Made by a program: the position numbers and the translations under genes. The notes below the pieces were generated by a model. It searched no databases, was not told the DNA's origin, and saw only the letters and a list, made by a program, of their open reading frames with translations. This document shows, in pieces, positions 4,694-14,562 of a DNA stretch of 64,000 bases (its first letter is position 1; the number at the start of each line of letters is the position of its first letter). The stretch is from a virus. Lineage: Duplodnaviria > Caudoviricetes. The DNA lies in the IMG/VR virus record IMGVR_UViG_3300049043_000067, positions 269 to 64,268 of that record; one strand, written 5' to 3'.

Positions 4694-4750
4694 GCTGCTA
4701 GTGCAGCGGGGAAGGCCCGCCTCGCGGCGGGCCCTCTGGCGCTAAACTAG
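4694..4750 (-). ncRNA. repeated intergenic RNA hairpin motif A, copy 2
   Basis: CUAGUUUAGCG-cca-GAGGGCCCGCC-gcga-GGCGGGCCUUC-cc-CGCUGCACUAG-CAGC. Confidence 0.75.
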
Positions 4751-5787
4751 GCGGACGTTTCCGGCGTTGAGCCAGTCACGGTAGGCCTGATGCTGAACGT
4801 AGTGCTGCTTCTCAGCGTCAGGTGCGGCGGCGTCGCGGTTCACGAGACTTTTTACGAAAAATATCTCGATCTCCTTGCTGGGCAGCCGCGACACGAACTT
4901 CAGTGCGTTGCCGAAGGTCCGGCGGTCAACGAGCTGGCTCAGCAACAGCGCAGTCACGTACTGAAGCTCGCGGCGCTCAGGCACGGCCACCGCGTCGGGC
5001 GTGGTCAGGATCTCCCGGACGTTGCCGATCTGGCTCCTGAGCTTACGGAAGCCGTTGAACGCGGCCGCCTGTTCGACACCGACCTGCCCGGCGATTGCCT
5101 CTGCCTCGATCTCATACGGCAGGCCGAGACCCACCGTCTGGGACACCGCGTCCCAGCTCCGCGGCGTGGGGTTAACATCGCGCTGCGGGTCGTAATTGTG
5201 CAGGGCCTTCTCGCCCGCATAGTCTATGTAAAACGTCACCGCTGGGTCGATCCCGGCCCCGGCAGCGTGCTCGACCCAGTCATCCTTGCCCACCTGCAGG
5301 CCCACAACCGTCAGGCGGTTGAGGTACTGGCCGGGCAGACGCGTCGAACCAGCGCGCGATTTCGCCGGGTTCCACGCCGAGACGATGGTCGTGAACCGTC
5401 CGATTTCGTGGTCACCTGCACGGCGGTCGAGGTGCAGGTTGGCGCAGGCGTTCTGCATCGACAGATGGGCCTGCCCGATTTCGTCGAGAAGCAGGACCCG
5501 CTTGTCGTCGCCTTCCGGCAGGAAGCGCGGGCGAAGCCACCCGGCATACTGACCGTCTGCGAACATGCCACCCGACAGGTCCGTCGGGTCGCGCATGCTG
5601 GCGAGGAAGGTCTGGGTGTATACCCGGACTTGCGGGCGGCCTGAGCCACCAGCGACGACTTGCCGATGCCCGGCTCACCCTCGACGCCGACGCGGATGTA
5701 ATCCAGCGCCGGGCCATTGCGCAGGGCGACCTGCTCGTTGTGCCGGATGACGCTGGTGAGGAACGCAGTGAAAGCCTTAGGACGCAT
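4742..5787 (-). CDS. MoxR-type AAA+ ATPase (frameshift near 5600-5640)
   Basis: Walker A GEPGIGKS (ORF 5311..5787); Walker B LLLDEI, sensor N and TPRSW (ORF 4742..5596); adjacent to the vWA gene. Confidence 0.9.
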
Positions 5788-5819
5788 TGCTTAGTCTCCT
5801 TTTTGTTTCTGTGATGTTC

Positions 5820-5874
5820 GGCCATCATCAGGCTGCACGTTATGCAGCGACCGGATTAACATCCGGTTTCGGCC
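5820..5874 (-). ncRNA. hammerhead ribozyme, type II
   Basis: Minus strand GGCC-GAAA-CCGGAU(guua)AUCCGG-UC^-GCUGCA(uaacg)UGCAGC-CUGAUGA-u-GGCC; complete core with one extra U; GUC site, cleavage predicted between 5849 and 5848. Confidence 0.9.
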
Positions 5875-5945
5875 TTGTAAATTAGTGACTTCCGTCTGTC
5901 AACTCAGGCGGGGATAAGGTGGAGAGGTCACCCTCCCCACCGCGA

Positions 5946-6845
5946 TTACCTGAGGAGCGCCGACATCAGTCCCGACGCTTTGGTAAGTGCATCTGTCCGG
6001 ATAGTATCGGACAGTTTCAGGTGCTCGGCGTCTACCGCGCCCAGCGCTTCCATCTCGGCGCAGACCTTGTCAAACTCCGCGTCACCCAGAAAATTGAGCG
6101 ACCGGCATATCCCAGCAATCTCACGGACATTGCTGACCGTAGACTGCCAGAACGCGCCCTCGGTCCGGATCCCGGACGGCGCGGTCGGATCCGCCACCTG
6201 CTTGTACCGGCCGACCGCCTCGACAAAGCGCTGCAGGACCGCAATGGCGCGGTCCCGGGCGTCTTGCTGGCTTTCCCTGAAGGTTGCCCTCGATCTCAGC
6301 CTGCAGGTCCAGCCGCATCGCGGCAGCCTCATCGGCAGCCAGCGCAAGGCGGAAGTCTTCGTCAACGTCGGCGACGGGCATGAACCCGACGCGGCAGTCG
6401 AACAGGCTGCGCACCTGATCTTCGTCCGGCCATTGGTGTCCGACGTAGGACTGCAGCCCGTTCAGCCGTGCGATGGCCTCGGCGCGGATCGTCGCATACT
6501 GGCCGACGAAGCGGTCAACCGTGGCCCTCCCATTCGCCGACGGCAGCGGCCAGTTCCGCCTCCACCTGCTTCACCGCGGGCATAGGGCAGGATCCTCACA
6601 CCGGCGGCTGCCCACGGCGCGCTGTAGTGTTCAACGACGCGGCGCACACGCTGGGCGTGCTTCGCGAGGGGCTTGAGGTAGTCCTCAGGTACCAGCCGCA
6701 CGACCGCGTTGACGGTGCGGTCGGAGGCTCCCTTGTCCCGCCTCGACCTCGGCGGACAGGCCGCGCGATGTCTTTTTGAAGGACGGGGTTCTCGATGCGC
6801 GACGTACACAAGGCACGCGCGCGACTGCAGGTCCATCTTTGTCAT
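5946..6845 (-). CDS. DUF3150-like protein (several frameshifts)
   Basis: Fragments ...HYSAPW...GVRILP..., ...FMPVAD..DFR..., ...LNFLGDAEF...LKLSDTIR; sits directly upstream of MoxR/vWA, a typical context for this family. Confidence 0.65.
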
Positions 6846-6862
6846 GTCTTAGTCTCTCATTG

Positions 6863-6921
6863 GCTGCGCTAGTGCAGCGGGGAAGGCCCGCCCTAAGGCA
6901 GGCCCTCTGACGCTAGACTAG
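6863..6921 (-). ncRNA. repeated intergenic RNA hairpin motif A, copy 1
   Basis: CUAGUCUAGCG-uca-GAGGGCCUGCC-uuag-GGCGGGCCUUC-cc-CGCUGCACUAG-CGCAGC. Confidence 0.75.
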
Positions 6922-7236
6922 CTCACGAGATCGACCCACGAGGTATCGACCGCGTTGCGTTGCTTTTCGATTTCGATATGCGCGGCGCGCAGGTCGATGA
7001 AGCGTGCGGCGTCTGCCAGCACGTCACGGCGGGATGTCCCCGGGTCCAGTACTGAGATGAAATGACCGGCCTTGTCGTGCACCCGGCCGCGCCAGCACGG
7101 CGCGCGTGTGTTGGATCCACCGGCCCCGGCTGACACCTGTGAAGGTGTCAACGCCTCGCCAGACGGTCACGACGCAGTCGCCGATGATGGCCTTGTAGGT
7201 GTCGGTTGCCACCTTCGTCACTGGTATTTTCGTCAT
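6918..7236 (-). CDS. hypothetical protein (one frameshift)
   Basis: AAGGAGA RBS and ATG at 7236; appears to continue into ORF 6918..7151. Confidence 0.55.
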
Positions 7237-7255
7237 GTTTGTCTCCTTGTTTGTT

Positions 7256-7309
7256 GGTCTCATCAGGCAGCGCCTTACGCTGCGACCGGGTTAAGCCCCG
7301 GTTTCGACC
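7256..7309 (-). ncRNA. hammerhead ribozyme, type II
   Basis: Minus strand GGUC-GAAA-CCGGG(gcuuaa)CCCGG-UC^-GCAGCG(uaagg)CGCUGC-CUGAUGA-GACC; perfect core; cleavage predicted between 7284 and 7283. Confidence 0.95.
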
Positions 7310-7548
7310 TTGTATGCAGCCACCTGCAGGACGGCGGCCTTTCTTTCGCCTCTGGCAAGATACTGAGCCTCCTCAGGCTCCTCAGTCAGGAATGCCTCCC
7401 GGATGTCGGTCGTGAACACGTTGTAGTTGGTCAGGTAGTGCGGCACGCCGCCGATCTTTTTCGTGATCGCGTATTGCCACCGTACCCCGGCGGCACAGGC
7501 TGCTTCGATCAGTGCGACGGCCAGAAAAATTGTTCCGTTGTTTTGCAT
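7291..7548 (-). CDS. hypothetical protein, first gene of the early operon
   Basis: 85 aa with GGAGA RBS; its stop codon lies in the stem III loop of the hammerhead at 7256-7309. Confidence 0.65.
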   Translation of the reverse strand: MQNNGTIFLAVALIEAACAAGVRWQYAITKKIGGVPHYLTNYNVFTTDIREAFLTEEPEEAQYLARGERKAAVLQVAAYKVETGA

Positions 7549-7560
7549 TTTCGTCTCCGT

Positions 7561-7612
7561 TGGTTTCGACCTGCCTCGGTCTCATCAGGCACGCGGCATC
7601 AGCGTGCTACCA
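7561..7612 (-). ncRNA. hammerhead ribozyme, type III
   Basis: Minus strand UGG-UA^-GCACGC(ugaugcc)GCGUGC-CUGAUGA-GACC(gaggca)GGUC-GAAA-CCA; loop1 UGCC is complementary to loop2 GGCA; cleavage predicted between 7608 and 7607. Confidence 0.9.
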
Positions 7613-7896
7613 GCCCAGCCGCCTTTGGAGCGGCTGGTACCCCTGCGGCGAGCCGGGCATTGCACGACGTCTGTGCAATCTCCCCGGCGACTTATGCCCC
7701 TCGTTTCCGTGGGCTGCGCGCAACACCGGAGAACCGGTGGCAGGTGGCTTTCCGCAGGTGACTCTCGCGTGCCTCTCGGCAGGCTTTCCCCCTGGTGGGT
7801 GCAGGCTCGCGTGGGATCCACGGTCTCGGCCAACCCTAGCTGCAACCCGGTCCCTGTAATCCCGCCTGTCGGCTAAACAGTCCGTCGCTGCAACGA
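7608..7896 (-). ncRNA. ~290-nt structured leader RNA of the early operon
   Basis: No credible ORF; many nested stems (UGCC-gaga-GGCA, CACCGG/CCGGUG, AUUGCAC/GUGCAAU within GCCGGG/CCCGGC, CCUGCGG/CCGCAGG, CCAGCCGC/GCGGCUGG) between the promoter and the hammerhead. Confidence 0.6.
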
Positions 7897-7902
7897 GATC
7901 AG

Positions 7903-7931
7903 AACTTAGGGCAGGTCTTGCCAAAACTCAA
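7903..7931 (-). promoter_or_regulatory. sigma70-type promoter of the early operon
   Basis: TTGAGT-17bp-TAAGTT on the minus strand. Confidence 0.55.
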
Positions 7932-8084
7932 CAGGGTATAGATGCGGCAGGGTGTCGCACCCCTGTGCAGGTCTGGAATGTCAGTGAAATCAGACAGATA
8001 CCAATGGAACGACCGCGCGGGGCGGGGTATGCTGCGCAGGTAAACGCTGGCCGGGACAGGCAGCGCAGGCAGATGAGGTGCAGG

Positions 8085-8691
8085 ATGACAGCGCGGAAAC
8101 GCAGGCAGGACGCGGCAGACAGGCTGCAGGGGATCGTGGATGATGCTAGCAACAAGTTACTAGTACTGAAGGGGCCAAAGCGACGGCTCACTGGAGCCGG
8201 AGCGCGAGACATTGAGGGGCAACCCGTCAACCTAGGCAACCTCACGGCAAGGCAGGAAGTGATGGCTGAGGCAGTAGCCAGCGGCCGGACAGGCATCGAC
8301 GCCTACCGCGATCGCGTTTGATTGCCCGACAGCCAGCGACAAGACGGTGGGCAGGAAGGTGAGCAGCCTAATGGGTAAGCCAGCCTTCAGGCAGGCTGTG
8401 GAGCGGCACAGGCAGCGGATAGCAGAAGAGTATCAGCGGGTGTTCCATCGGACCGCGCGCGACATCACGGCGGCGTTGTGGCGGGAAGCGGAGAGCGGGG
8501 AAAATGGCGGAGCGGTGCGGGTGCGAGCGCTTGAACTACTGGGGAAGGATCGGGGCATGTTCTCCGAAAAGGCGCAGAAATCCGAGGGTAAAACGCTTTC
8601 GAGTGAGGAAGTGGAGCAGCAGATTCGGGGAATGTTGGAGACGTATCTCGGAGGAAATGCCTTGATTATCAACGACTTAGAGAAGAAGTGA
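8085..8691 (+). CDS. terS: terminase small subunit (frameshift near 8315)
   Basis: LTARQEVMAEAVASG..GIDAYR HTH start and RVRALELLGK..GMF.EK C-terminal motif typical of TerS. Confidence 0.75.
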
Positions 8692-8968
8692 ATGGTTAGA
8701 GACACTAACCAATCCCAGAGAAAAATGGCGGAAATCAGCCATTCCTCCTCCTTTTGACCCCACCCTCCCCCGACCCCCCCTTTTTTCAGTCGGGTCCCCC
8801 GCGATTCTCCTACATGCGACCAACCACAAACAAAACAATATTTCAAATCCACGCAATAAAATGCATCCCCATCACCTACCCCCACCCCCTCGATTTTCTG
8901 CCGTTTCCAGCGGGTCCCATCCGCGCAATTTCTGCCCCATACCCCATACAAATTTTGAGAAGCCCCTA

Positions 8969-8997
8969 TTGACACTCCATAAACAGCTTGTTAAGCA
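8969..8997 (+). promoter_or_regulatory. sigma70-type promoter
   Basis: TTGACA-17bp-TAAGCA upstream of the gene at 9039. Confidence 0.55.
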
Positions 8998-9038
8998 TCG
9001 GTTCTCGCAGCGTGTGCTGCGTGCTGATGGAGACTGAT

Positions 9039-9353
9039 ATGGAAACGAACAACCGCAGGACGGCGCAGGACGTCATCCGCGTCAATGAACTTCTCCGTGG
9101 GGCGCTGGTGCAGCGTCAGGACGGCCTCTACTCCTACATAAACGGCCTGAACGATATCATGATCGCCGAGTCCGCCGGGGTGCCCGCCTCGACCGTCCGC
9201 GGGATCCGCAAGAGCGTCTACGGTCGTGTGCGTGGCTGGGAACGCCGCAAGCGCACCACCACGGTCCCGCCCGTGACGGACTTCGGCAAGCGTCTCGACG
9301 AGATCGAGGCGAAGCTGGACGCGGCACTGTCCATCCTGAAAACACTGGTGTAG
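9039..9353 (+). CDS. small putative HTH DNA-binding protein
   Basis: DIMIAESAGVPASTVRGIRK helix-turn-helix-like segment plus C-terminal coiled coil; GGAGA RBS. Confidence 0.6.
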   Translation: METNNRRTAQDVIRVNELLRGALVQRQDGLYSYINGLNDIMIAESAGVPASTVRGIRKSVYGRVRGWERRKRTTTVPPVTDFGKRLDEIEAKLDAALSILKTLV

Positions 9354-9446
9354 CTGTGAATTGCTGCAAGTGCACCCGTCCGGCCTCACTACGGCTGGAC
9401 GGGTCAGTGTACTGCGGTGATCATTACCCCCTGTACGAGGACAGCA

Positions 9447-9668
9447 ATGCTAACAACGGAACAGGCCGCGGAGGCGTGGTCAACCCTCAGGCGAATGTAC
9501 GTGCAGGCGGACAACACGTCCGCCAGCAGCTACCGGCTGGTAGCGGAAAAGTACGGCGTTACACCTGAAGAATTACATGAAGCGATTGTGAAATACAAAA
9601 AAGAGAAGCACCGGGTGTACATGCGCGGATACATGCGCAGGCGTCGCGGTAGTCAGAAAGTGGGTTAG
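9447..9668 (+). CDS. small basic hypothetical protein
   Basis: GAGGA RBS; VAEKYGVT HTH-like segment. Confidence 0.5.
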   Translation: MLTTEQAAEAWSTLRRMYVQADNTSASSYRLVAEKYGVTPEELHEAIVKYKKEKHRVYMRGYMRRRRGSQKVG

Positions 9669-9670
9669 CA

Positions 9671-9946
9671 ATGATGCGGTGGGGTCAGATGATAGGAGCT
9701 AGCATTATGAGTTGTGATCTCGTTGAAATCCGTCTGAACAACGGTCTGGTGATCAGCCTGCACGACGACGGGCACGCGGGGTGGTTCCGCGACCGTAAGG
9801 TGACGGAGCGCGAAATGTGGGAGCGTATGGCCCACCTGATCCAGAACACGGACTTCGAGGCCGTAAAGAGCCTCTACGGTTCAGTGTCTTCTGAGCCGCC
9901 GGTCACGCTGCGTCGGCTGGAGCCGCGCAAGATCGAGAGCAAGTAA
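9671..9946 (+). CDS. hypothetical protein
   Basis: ORF whose stop overlaps the next start (TAATG); true start may be 9707. Confidence 0.5.
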   Translation: MMRWGQMIGASIMSCDLVEIRLNNGLVISLHDDGHAGWFRDRKVTEREMWERMAHLIQNTDFEAVKSLYGSVSSEPPVTLRRLEPRKIESK

Positions 9947-10416
9947 TGGGGAAGCCGAAGCCCCCGGGGGTTAAGTGGACTTCGGCACGCGACGGGTTTC
10001 TGATGAAGCTCGTCGCGGCGGGCCTGAACCGGGAAGTGATAGCTGCGAAGCTGTCCGCCCGGTTCGGGCAGCGTTTTACCAAAAACGCAGTCATCGGCAG
10101 GTCCAACCGGATCAAGGCGGCGGCGGAGAAGAAGCCCGGAGTTTATTACAGGATATCGGACGCGAAGCCTCGCGTCGCCGCGGTACCTAAACCAGACAGC
10201 GTCGGCAACCCCGGCGGCTGTCAGTATATGGCGGGAGAGCCAAATGAGAGACAGTTCTGTGGCAAGCAAACGGTCGCCGCGCTTCGTGGTGGGCCCAGCG
10301 CGTGGTGCGAGACGCACTACCGCGCTGTCTACCAGAAGATTGACGCCAAAAAAGCAGCGGCTGCTGGACATTATGACGGCATACGTCCGTTCAAAAGGCT
10401 ACCCGCCAACGTATAA
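9946..10416 (+). CDS. gcrA: GcrA-like cell-cycle regulator
   Basis: N-terminal WT....LM.L...G.....IA..L......TKNAVIGRSNRI and C-terminal CQY..G....QFCG......WCETH..AVY of the GcrA family. Confidence 0.85.
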   Translation: MGKPKPPGVKWTSARDGFLMKLVAAGLNREVIAAKLSARFGQRFTKNAVIGRSNRIKAAAEKKPGVYYRISDAKPRVAAVPKPDSVGNPGGCQYMAGEPNERQFCGKQTVAALRGGPSAWCETHYRAVYQKIDAKKAAAAGHYDGIRPFKRLPANV

Positions 10417-10614: not shown

Positions 10615-12144
10615 GTGGTCAGCAACCCGATCAGCCCTCACCGCCTGACCACCGCTATGCTATCGGCCCTGCCGATAGCCGAGCGGGAGCGGCTGCTTGA
10701 CCTGCTGAAACAGCTCGAAGACGCAAAGAACAGGGAGAAGGCGAGGACAGACTTCATCGCCTTCACCAAAACGATGTGGCCGGGGTTTATCGCCGGTAAG
10801 CACCACCGGATAATGGCTGACGCCTTCGAGAAGGTCGCCACCGGCAAGAGCAAGCGCATCATCATCAATATGGCTCCCCGACACACGAAGTCGGAGTTCG
10901 CCAGCTTCTTGCTGCCCGCGTGGTATCTGGGAATGTACCCGGACAGGAAGATCATTCAGGCCTCGCACACCGCCGAGCTTTCTGTGAATTTTGGCAGAAA
11001 GGTCAGGAACCTAAGTGGGATCTGATCAGTACCAGACCGTCTTCCCGAACACGCGCCTTCAGCCTGACAGTCAGGCCGCCGGGCGATGGGCGACAGATAT
11101 GGGCGGCGAGTACTTCGCCGTTGGTGTCGGCGGCGCGCTGGCCGGTAAGGGTGCGAACCTGCTGATCATCGACGACCCGCACACCGAGCAGGACGCCATC
11201 TCCGGGATGACGTCGTCTGATGTATACAACAAGGCCTACGAGTGGTTTACCACCGGCCCCCGACAGCGTTTGCAGCCCGGTGCCGCCGTCATCATCGTGA
11301 TGACGCGCTGGTCGAAGCTGGATCTGACTGGTCGATTGCTCGAAAAAGCATGAAAGACTCAGGCACGTCTGAGTGGGAAGTCATTGAATTACCTGCGATA
11401 TTGCCGTCTGGCGACCCGCTTTGGCCTGAGTTCTGGACGAAAGGCGAGCTTGAGGCGGTCAAGGCCGACATCCCGGTCAATCGCTGGAATGCCCAGTACA
11501 TGCAGCAGCCGACCTCCGAGGAAGGCGCGATCATCAAGCGTGAGTGGTGGAAGCTCTGGGACAAGCCCCGCCCGCCGAAGTGCGACAGCGTGATTGTGTC
11601 GTGGGACACGGCATTCGAGACCAAATCCCGCTCAGACTACTCAGCCTGCACGACGTGGGGCGTGTTTCAGGTCGAGGGCAAGAACGGGAAGATGCACCAG
11701 AACCTGATCCTGCTGGACGCCTTCCGGGAGAAGATGGAGTTCCCGGAGCTGAAAAAGGTGGCCAAAAGGCACTACGACTTCTGGAACCCCGACGCCCTGA
11801 TTGTCGAAGCGTCCGCCGCCGGTATCCCCCTCATACAGGAGATGCGTGCCTACGGCATCCCGGTCGAGGATCACCGCGTGAGCTGGGCGCGTGACAAGAA
11901 GGCCCGCGTCAACGCCATCAGCGACATGTTCCAGTCCGGCTTCGTCTGGTATCCGGACCAGCGCTGGGCGCATGAAGTGATTGAGGAGTGCGCCGAGTTT
12001 CCCAACGGCCAGCACGATGACTACGTCGATACGGTATCTCAGGCCCTGCTGCGCGCGCGCAAGGGCGGGCTGCTGCTGGCGTCCGACTATGAATTTGGTG
12101 ACGTGCCACTCGATGACATGTCCATCCCGTTAAACCCATATTGA
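10615..12144 (+). CDS. terL: terminase large subunit (two frameshifts)
   Basis: INMAPRHTKSE Walker A, LLIIDDP Walker B, VMTRW, SWDTAF nuclease Asp and HDDYVD across ORFs 10615, 11015 and 11242. Confidence 0.95.
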
Positions 12145-12151
12145 GGCCATC

Positions 12152-14562
12152 ATGCCCATAACAAAGATCATGACCCCGTCCGGCTCGACGCCGATCAACC
12201 CCACCGAACAGGACGTCGAGATCCCCGATCTTCCGCCTGAACTCTCGGAAATGACCGAGATGGAAGACGGCTCATACATGTTCTCGGAGCCTGAGGACGA
12301 GTCGGCTGTTCCTGAAAGTTTTGACCAGAACCTTGCTGATGTCGTGGAAATCGACGAGCTGATGGCACTCGGGTCAGACCTGATCCAGAAGTTTGAGTCC
12401 GACAAGCGCTCGCGCGACCCGTGGGAGAAGACCTACAAGGACGGCCTTGATCTACTGGGGCTGAAGGTCGAGGCCAGAACGTCGCCGTGGGCCGGTGCGT
12501 CCGGCGTATTTCACCCCGTGCTGGCGGAGGCCGCCATCAGGTTTGAGGCTCAGGCGATGCTTGAGCTTTGCCCGGCGTCCGGACCGGCTGACGTCTCCAC
12601 CTACGGCCGGGAAGACGGCGAGCGCGTCAAGCGCGCCCTGCGCGTGAAGCAGGAGCTGAACTACCAGACGATGAACAAGATGCACGAGTTCCGCGCGGAG
12701 CACGAGCAGATGCTGTTCAACCTCGGACCGGCCGGTTCTGCCTTCAAGAAGGTGTACCGGGACCCGATCACCGGTCGTCCCTGCAGCATTTTCGTTCCGG
12801 CCGAGGACTTTGTCATTGCCTACGGCGCGTCTGACCTCATGACCGCGCCGCGCTACTGTCACGTCATTCGCCAACATGCCAATGAAATCAAGAAGTTACA
12901 GGCTGTCGGCTTCTACCGTAAGTGCAACCTGCCAACGCCGACCCCGAGTACAGCGAAATCGGGAACAAGCGTGACAAATTGCAGGGCGTCCAATCGCAGG
13001 TGGAGTACGACGACCGGCACACCATCCTTGAGTTTCACGTTGACTGCGACATCCCCGGCTTCGAGATGGAGTTTGCGGTACCGTACGTGATCACGGTCGA
13101 GAAGCAGTCCGGCGAGGTGCTATCAATCCGCAGGAACTGGCTCGAAGGCGACCCGCTGATGGAAAAGCGGATGCACTTCGTGCACTACCTGTACTTGCCG
13201 GGATTGGGTTTCTACGGCACCGGGCAGATCCACATTCTCGGCGGCCTCGCGCGCGCGTCAACCTCGATTTTGCGCCAACTTATCGACGCCGGAACCCTGT
13301 CGGTGTTGCCTATGGGATACAAGGCCCGGGGCTTCCGCGTGAAGCAAAACGACCAGCCGCTGCGCCCGGGCGAGTTCCGCGACTCAGACGCCCGCGGGCG
13401 TGCTGCGGGACAATATCTTCGTGATGCCTGCAAAGGATCCGTCGCCAGTGATGGCCCAGATCCTCCAGAACCTCGTCGAGGAGGCCCGCAAGGTGGGCTC
13501 CATCGCCGAGATGGATGTCTCCGGCATGTCGCAGCAGGCCCCGGTTGGCACGACGCTGGCGCTTCTGGAGAGAAATCTCAAGGTTATGTCCGGGGTTCAG
13601 GCCAGACTTCACGCGTCGATGCAGAAGGAACTCAGGCTGATCGCCGACATCATCGGCAGCACCGAAGGAAACTACGAATACGACGAGCAGCCCTACAACC
13701 GGTCCGAGGATTTCGCCGCCGTAGGCAAGGACATCATCCCGGTATCTGATCCGAACGCGTCGATGATGGCGCAGCGCGTGGTCCAGTATCAGGCGGGTAT
13801 GGAACTCGCCTACAAGTCGCCGGACCTGTACAACATGCCTCTCTTCCACCAGCAGATGCTGGGGTGCTGGGCATCAAGGAAGCCGACAAGATCGTCAAGC
13901 TGCCGGAAGACGCCCAGCCGATGGATCCTGTTTCGGAAAATATGGCTATTCTCAATGGCTTACCTGCCAAAGCATTCATCCATCAGGACCATCAGGCTCA
14001 CCTGCAGGTCCATATGGCGATGGTTCAGGACCCGTCCATCCTAGAGAAGGTTGGCCAGTCTCCGGCCGCAGGCAAGATACAGGGTGCGATGTCGGCTCAT
14101 ATTGCCGAGCATCTGGCCTTTGCCTACCGGTCGCAGATCGAGCAGAAGCTCGGCATCCAGTTGCCGCCTCCGGGCGAGCCGCTGCCGCCTGAGGTCGAGG
14201 GCCAGCTTGCGAAGCTGGTGGCCGAGGCCGCGCAGATGGTATTGGCTGAAAATCAGGGCGCAGCCGCCCAGAAGAAGGCCGAGGAGACTGTCAAGGACCC
14301 GATCTTCCAGCTCCAGAAGGAGAAGAACGAGAACCAGCGGCTGGAGGTCATGCGCAAGATGCAGAAGGACAAGGCCGAGCAGGTTATGGGCCTCGTGAAA
14401 ATTATCGCAGATAATGATCAGGAGGTTGCCCGTCTGGCCGTCGAGATGTACAAGGCTAATCAGGGTGTTGACGTCAAACAGGCGACCAACGCCGCCAACG
14501 CAGGCATGAAGCTGGTCGATATTATCGCCCGCTCTCAGACGAAACCGGGTGAACCGCAATGA
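12152..14562 (+). CDS. portal protein (three frameshifts)
   Basis: Follows TerL; PWAGASGVFHPVLAEA, GSAFKKVY, GLGFYG..LIDAGTL, VGTTLALLE and PVSDPN motifs of this portal family. Confidence 0.9.

Follow-up and report, generated by a model that had tools for sequence, protein, structure and literature searches.

We propose, with a confidence of about one half, that a GC-rich stretch of a phage contig is an untranslated 5' leader of a leftward operon that is excised from the transcript, being trimmed off the first gene by a type III hammerhead ribozyme, HH1. The window is the whole stretch of DNA analysed, 64,000 nucleotides from a virus contig in IMG/VR that is 64,268 bases long, is estimated to be 72% complete and has a GC content of about 60%. 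The feature under study lies on the minus strand only, and is read from 7896 to 7608, finishing at the hammerhead cleavage site, with the leader itself at 7613..7896 and its 3' end set by HH1. A preliminary description of this DNA presented the interval as a highly structured RNA that the hammerhead would release, and this observation is partly confirmed, in that a non-coding GC-rich leader and a credible hammerhead are present, but folding beyond chance is not. The accompanying interpretation is likewise partly supported, the interval being non-coding, situated upstream of a credible hammerhead, and having a GC-rich hairpin near the cut. The leader that is cut away is most likely a by-product.

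The leader lies within a non-coding divergent control region of 536 nt (7549-8084) between the leftward and rightward operons. The first gene after HH1 is P0001 (7291..7548, minus strand), which encodes an 85-residue orphan, starts with an ATG at 7548 preceded by the Shine-Dalgarno (SD) sequence GGAG at 7558-7555, and has itself as sole match among 5.8 billion proteins. It is followed by a second small gene, P0002 (7024..7236, minus strand, 70 aa), situated behind HH2, and by an ATPase gene (phrog_1297, minus strand, ATG at 5787) situated behind HH3. The rightward operon opens with a gene for 78 aa (8085..8321, plus strand; ATG at 8085, SD GAGG), and a small protein encoded at 8371-8691 (plus strand) resembles the C-terminal part of the protein at the small-terminase position in another hammerhead-bearing phage, L027; terminase and portal pieces come after it in the operon. 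The 296 nt behind this gene (8692-8987, plus strand) have no obvious open reading frame, are rich in C and poor in G (C 0.38, G 0.13, C/G 2.97), contain CCCCACCCTCC repeats, and resemble a Rho loading site in composition. A gene for a GcrA-like cell-cycle regulator (9946-10416, plus strand; Pfam PF07750, E 1.1e-08) is found among the packaging genes, from which we infer an alphaproteobacterial host. The genes for the large terminase, the portal protein, and the ATPase (phrog_1297) are each in two overlapping or separated frames (10615-12144, 12152-13749, and 4742-5787, respectively), reflecting either indel errors in the contig or interrupted genes, and because several genes are broken in this way, single-base errors are possible in the leader or in HH1 too. 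Searches of the window for tRNA and tmRNA genes found none, and there are no meaningful tandem repeats.

HH1 (7561..7612, minus strand) is a type III hammerhead with a full core that reads UGGUA^GCACGC-UGAUGCC-GCGUGC-CUGAUGA-GACC-GAGGCA-GGUC-GAAA-CCA (7612-7561), with the predicted cut after A7608, between 7608 and 7607. Stem I is 6 bp (GCACGC/GCGUGC), and stems II (GACC/GGUC) and III (UGGU/ACCA, including A15.1-U16.1) are 4 bp each. The core is canonical throughout (CUGAUGA at 7588-7582, GAAA at 7567-7564, and U7609-A7608), and the core-adjacent pairs are standard (G7581-C7568 at 10.1-11.1, G7607-C7589 at 1.1-2.1, and A7564-U7609 at 15.1-16.1). The available text of Perreault et al. 2011 (PMC3088659) accepts as hammerheads those sequences with standard core-adjacent pairs and three stems without multiple mispairs, and HH1 has both. 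A direct search of the phage record with RF00008 finds HH1 over the full model (positions 1-54) with 27.1 bits (E 3.6e-5), which is below the Rfam gathering score of 48.5 bits; canonical phage hammerheads in L027 and others likewise go unreported at gathering, as judged by eye. Folded in isolation, HH1 has the three-way junction as its minimum free energy (MFE) structure, with a fold z of -0.62. As the catalytic core is complete and the cut would fall after A7608, the ribozyme-defined 3' end of the preliminary description is sound. HH1 is thus a credible ribozyme, and upstream RNA transcribed through it would acquire a ribozyme-made 3' end, with a 2',3'-cyclic phosphate after A7608. Efficient cutting is not assured, since stem III is just 4 bp and equilibrium folding of the full leader disfavors the ribozyme fold.

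Two further hammerheads, both putatively type II and both on the minus strand, lie downstream. HH2 (7256..7309, predicted cut after C7284), identified by motif scanner and by fold, overlaps the end of P0001 (7284-7309), such that the last codons of the gene form the GGUC-GAAA-CCGGG of the ribozyme and its UAA stop lies in loop III. HH3 (5820..5874, predicted cut after 5849) precedes the ATPase gene and has an extra U after A9. Both fold in isolation as a canonical three-way junction (fold z -3.66 for HH2 and -4.23 for HH3); RF02276 has no match at either, and RF00008 matches them in part, with 13.6 and 15.3 bits respectively. Scanning the whole 64 kb for the motif returns exactly three hammerheads, all on the minus strand, and the same scanner returns no match in 30 shuffles and again none in 20. 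With cmscan, the Rfam gathering mode reports no hammerhead in the window, and the E-value mode reports HH3 alone of the three, weakly, through RF00008. The cluster spans 1.8 kb and flanks P0001 and the block from P0002 to 5946, with each hammerhead ending 12-40 nt before an SD and start codon. To judge from sequence and predicted fold, HH1 is real and HH2 and HH3 are probably so, and the cluster has the prophage-type arrangement of the available text of PMC3088659.

The leader is non-coding. Its GC content is flat over the three codon phases (0.66-0.70 over 7620-7890, and in every 150-nt window), as compared with about 0.6/0.4/0.7 in the flanking genes (0.60/0.42/0.70 in P0001), and there is no SD-led open reading frame of at least 10 aa on the minus strand between 7608 and 8095, which bears out the earlier statement that no reading frame here has a ribosome binding site. 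The interval is crossed by one long open reading frame (7924-7607, 105 codons), whose stop is a UAG at the cut site. It could be viewed as a gene that has decayed or been mis-sequenced and that corresponds to the open reading frame found before the first hammerhead in some phages, as in L027, where one of 122 aa occupies the equivalent place. A contig with its terminase, portal, and ATPase genes in pieces is one where such decay might be expected, but we give this explanation very little credence, given the flat GC at all codon phases, the TTG start without an SD, the R/G/P-rich product, and the lack of any relative among 5.8 billion proteins; the open reading frame itself is also absent from the records. 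It is the composition of the leader, and not its fold, that is the real oddity. The GC content is 0.67, relative to 0.51-0.59 in two other nearby non-coding stretches, and a GC content this high is found in just 5% of the contig windows; the RNA is G-rich (G 0.36, C 0.31, U 0.13), and no part of it is repeated elsewhere in the window.

The fold of the leader is within the range of chance. The MFE of the minus strand has a z of -1.64 relative to 200 dinucleotide shuffles, 15 of which fold as well, and the plus strand has a z of -1.90, so the opposite strand folds as well as the leader strand. After regression of MFE on GC over 220 contig windows of equal length the leader residual is -1.05 sd, and 12.7% of the windows are as low. 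The ensemble is diffuse, with the MFE structure at a frequency of 0.0056 (about 0.6% of the ensemble). Two elements singled out in the preliminary description are indeed in the MFE fold, namely the CCUGCGG/CCGCAGG helix (7758-7752 with 7648-7642) and the GNRA loop GAGA, on a 4-bp stem; its phrase highly structured is not justified by these z values. Local perfect hairpins are mildly enriched. Three distinct ones occur in the 289 nt (7615-7637, 7659-7679, and 7724-7739), the first being the hairpin of the hammerhead module described below; the count of five, which includes register duplicates, is matched in 2.6% of the contig windows and in 1.6% of the shuffles. The leader matches no described RNA family in the Rfam search that had been suggested as a check: the Rfam 15 covariance models give no match to it in gathering mode over the window, and the E-value mode, applied to 6500-9500, 7230-7640, 5780-5920, and 7600-8090, gives noise together with the weak RF00008 row for HH3, the leader row being mir-596 at a noise level of 18.1 bits (E 3.8).

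The leader has its strongest stem in the 8-bp hairpin CCAGCCGC-UCCAAAG-GCGGCUGG (7615..7637, minus strand), which constitutes the last 23 nt before HH1 (7637-7615); just 2 nt separate it from stem III downstream, and the cut is 6 nt away. We compared this with 47 non-redundant type III hammerheads from fetched phage contigs (loci L002-L153; 55 before removal of near-duplicates), scoring a hairpin as present where the 40 nt just upstream of the hammerhead reach -10 kcal/mol, with segments 100 and 200 nt further up as controls. Thirty of the 47 reach this value, compared to 12/47 and 3/47 of the respective controls (Wilcoxon p of about 5e-6 and about 1e-6). The upstream 40 nt have a mean fold of -12.4 kcal/mol, with -6.9 and -5.7 for the control segments at 100 and 200 nt, and the median gap between the end of the hairpin and stem III is 0 nt. 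The recurrence of such a hairpin at 30 of 47 phage type III hammerheads argues that the one at 7637-7615 is part of the ribozyme module. Its role may be to stack on the short stem III or to shield the 3' end of the fragment released upstream, and the presence of such a hairpin at about two-thirds of the sampled type III hammerheads suggests that the module shapes the upstream 3' end or props the short stem III. We found no description of a hairpin upstream of stem III in the literature, although supplementary figures may show one, and this general observation is possibly a more useful lead than the leader itself.

The position of the hairpin and the composition of the leader also raise the question of whether the excised RNA has a function, as a free and stable phage RNA expressed early. 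HH1 would form its 3' end, the 8-bp hairpin would serve as a cap, and the RNA would act in trans, whether as regulator, decoy, or anti-defence RNA. The leader is GC-rich and G-rich despite being non-coding, the density of its perfect hairpins is within the top 2.6% of contig windows, and one of these is 2 nt from stem III and 6 nt from the cut. There is also precedent for ribozyme-made phage guide RNAs in the vrRNAs of VIPR, which in the available text of the preprint (10.64898/2026.04.26.720920) have 9-16 YNNGG repeats and a conserved tail and are found in hammerhead-interspersed arrays. The leader itself is not a vrRNA of this kind, having at most two in-phase GGY units per nine pentamers (shuffle mean 2.55), and no nine-pentamer window with at least six GGY units occurs on either strand of the 64 kb. 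Besides the absence of YNNGG repeats, the overall fold is within chance and no better than that of the opposite strand, the MFE frequency is low (0.0056), neither an Rfam family nor a homologue was found, and leaders are not conserved in one related lineage. The hairpin at the cut is moreover generic to phage type III hammerheads, and in L027 at least the piece upstream is mRNA. A free functional RNA is thus possible but unlikely, and the discrete ncRNA proposed in the preliminary description is not supported by the fold, family, and homologue searches. We consider it rather improbable that the leader is deliberately stabilised for early action in trans, its HH1-made 3' end being capped by the hairpin and the 2',3'-cyclic phosphate, with hairpin and type III hammerhead together serving as a general phage device for exonuclease-resistant 3' ends. 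Should the leader prove to be a stable RNA, a ribozyme-made ncRNA would be added to the phage repertoire.

The 5' end of the leader is placed less securely than the 3' end. The promoter predicted previously, TTGAGT-17-TAAGTT (7903..7931, minus strand), is weak, with 7/12 consensus matches; it is missed by a consensus scan and ties with two other minus-strand candidates, although it is located at a local GC minimum of 0.47. As the promoter is this weak, the leader length of about 290 nt is a guess. No promoter-like site is present between 7612 and 7830, and a sigma-54 type promoter at TGGCAAG was rejected, as the spacing is wrong when checked by hand. Among sequencing runs, no RNA run was found with the stretch, and one lake-water DNA run contains 7% of the sampled words, giving three short near-identical contigs at a depth of about 2, one of which covers 7828-7995. 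At 7899-7915, within the spacer and -10 hexamer of the proposed promoter, this contig has three substitutions and lacks one base, and over the 70 nt of leader that it covers it has no differences. Coverage from this run is too sparse to build on.

The uncertain start of transcription leaves room for a different account, in which the stretch acts mainly as DNA, its palindromes being putative protein-binding sites, with leftward transcription starting close to HH1 and little leader RNA being made. The palindromes are TTGCAC-N7-GTGCAA (7660-7678), CACCGG-N4-CCGGTG (7724-7739), and CCAGCCGC-N7-GCGGCTGG (7615-7637). A region between divergent operons is where such sites might lie, a perfect inverted repeat is symmetric with respect to the strands, the plus strand is no less folded than the minus strand, and no strong promoter fixes the start site at 7896. 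However, operator sets have a motif in common and these three palindromes do not, and their sequences are not repeated elsewhere in the window; one of them is the hairpin of the hammerhead module, and the interval 7612-7830 has no promoter-like site either. We therefore regard a primarily DNA-level role as quite unlikely.

A further consideration is whether the leader controls the ribozyme, as a cis-acting switch that gates HH1 or translation, with cleavage depending on the leader fold. The segment AGGCACGCG (7774-7766) can pair with CGCGUGCCU (7595-7587), a perfect 9-nt complement that covers the 3' strand of stem I plus C3-U4, and an arm of the adjacent hairpin can compete for stem III. With the full leader present the predicted probability of the ribozyme fold is about 0 (ddG 6.8 kcal/mol), and with 40-90 nt of leader the probability of stem III is just about 0.05-0.13. 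These effects are not unusual, in that 8% of shuffled upstream sequences contain a complement as long, and as great a cost to the ribozyme fold is seen with 8 of 60 shuffled leaders. At five loci that share stem I (L015, L121, L122, L123, and L124), only one of six other hammerheads has a significant complement, of 10 nt in L124 (1% of shuffles), with none at the other five (0.20-1.00 of shuffles). Co-transcriptional folding would also favor local stems. Gating of HH1 by the leader is thus unsupported after the complement and fold tests against shuffles, and the switch has a small chance of being correct.

No leader homologue was found among deposited phages (blastn against phage GenBank), and viral contigs searched with P0001, the ATPase, and P0003 gave no close relative. 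Hammerhead-pattern scans of viral and metagenome contigs return hammerheads, to which local blastn matches the ribozyme core only; the same type of scan of genome contigs gave no matches, and 80 terminase relatives (52-62% identity) have no hammerhead by the scanner and no similarity to the leader. Three loci, L015 (2000-3080), L121 (1600-2960, minus strand), and L138 (1-260), carry a hammerhead with the stem I of HH1 (GCACGC/GCGUGC); that of L015 also has its stem II (GACC/GGUC), and is 89.6% identical to HH1 over 48 nt. The sharing of stem I by HH1 and these three loci, without any neighbouring protein in common, suggests that the ribozyme module moves between phages.

The organization of L015 and L121 is of particular relevance, as in both a terminase gene is followed by a tRNA, direct repeats, and a long non-coding stretch, and then by a type III and next a type II hammerhead, each with a small gene behind it. 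The long stretch before the hammerhead has no convincing open reading frame in either, and blocks of direct repeats lie between the tRNA gene and the leader. L121 has a back-to-back pair of 10/12 promoters about 525 nt upstream of the cut, and a long untranslated leader before the first hammerhead is therefore recurrent. No alignment is obtained between the L015 and L121 leaders, even though the coding parts of these two loci are 66-68% identical, and in the closer pair, L121 and L138, the last ~115 nt alone align, at 74%. Because the leaders are not alignable despite similar coding parts, and because the L121 leader has an ordinary fold (z -0.54), the leader behaves as a weakly constrained spacer in this lineage.

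We favor the excised-leader interpretation and envisage the following sequence of events. Transcription would begin in the AT-richer part of the region, at about 7830-7980, and would proceed first along the leader, which is rich in G and prone to hairpins, and next along the module formed by the hairpin at 7637-7615 and HH1. The ribozyme would fold as it is transcribed and cut after A7608, and if it does so in vivo the detached leader would carry a 2',3'-cyclic phosphate, and the mRNA for the first gene would start with a 5'-hydroxyl and retain the compact stems of the ribozyme, 12 nt ahead of its AUG. HH2 and HH3 would cut likewise before the later genes, resolving the operon into defined pieces as in prophage hammerhead clusters. 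The leader would have no sequence-specific job, its stems being what a GC content of 67% provides. Any role for the stems would be at most generic, such as hindering Rho loading on a long untranslated RNA (G exceeds C) or avoiding interference with ribozyme folding. There are several points against this interpretation. A GC content of 0.67 is odd for non-coding DNA here, and the perfect hairpins are in the 2-3% tail; an upstream fragment meant to last would be expected to have a hairpin close to its end, as is the case here at 6 nt from the cut; and HH1 scores below Rfam gathering, has a 4-bp stem III, and is disfavored as a fold by the full leader.

The arrangement is related to several known systems. 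The putL and putR RNAs of phage HK022 are about 70 nt long with two defined stem-loops, and they act while tethered to the polymerase that made them. The leader would resemble them as a structured RNA transcribed directly behind an early promoter of a phage, but differs from put in that it would be cut loose by HH1, and cutting it off the nascent RNA would untether a cis-acting antiterminator of this type. There are also no intrinsic-terminator-like sites on either strand within 6800-8800, so that the premise of terminator read-through is without support, and the put-like antiterminator entertained in the preliminary description is unlikely. The vrRNA arrays of VIPR offer a second parallel, at least as far as the available text of the preprint describes them, as phage-borne non-coding RNAs with hammerhead-made ends. 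Beyond that preprint and PMC3088659 we found no ribozyme-cut phage leaders of this kind in the literature, although supplements may show them.

The prophage clusters of PMC3088659 are a close parallel in the available text of that paper, which describes clustered hammerheads flanking genes in prophages, with three clusters cleaved in vitro and one in E. coli. Those clusters and the one described here are alike in having mixed types (III, II, and II here) on one strand, each before a phage gene, and in the expected processing of a polycistronic RNA into gene-length pieces. Relative to the clusters in the same text, the flanked genes here are orphans, and the Rfam gathering scores are unreached. 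A second difference is that HH1, because it precedes the first gene, would remove a long untranslated leader instead of separating two genes. For the question of what purpose bacterial and phage hammerheads serve, this locus is a clean case, with the first ribozyme placed between a long leader and the first ribosome site.

RiboJ is an engineered element in which a satellite-RNA ribozyme is joined to a downstream hairpin. Insulators of the RiboJ type resemble the module described here in that a self-cleaving ribozyme between a promoter-proximal leader and the ribosome site removes a variable 5' leader, leaving a defined 5'-OH end and a structured element before the SD. The differences are that the module here is natural, that it has an extra hairpin upstream, and that its insulator function is putative. 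The locus looks like a naturally occurring equivalent of the ribozyme insulators that are built in synthetic biology (PMC6206723).
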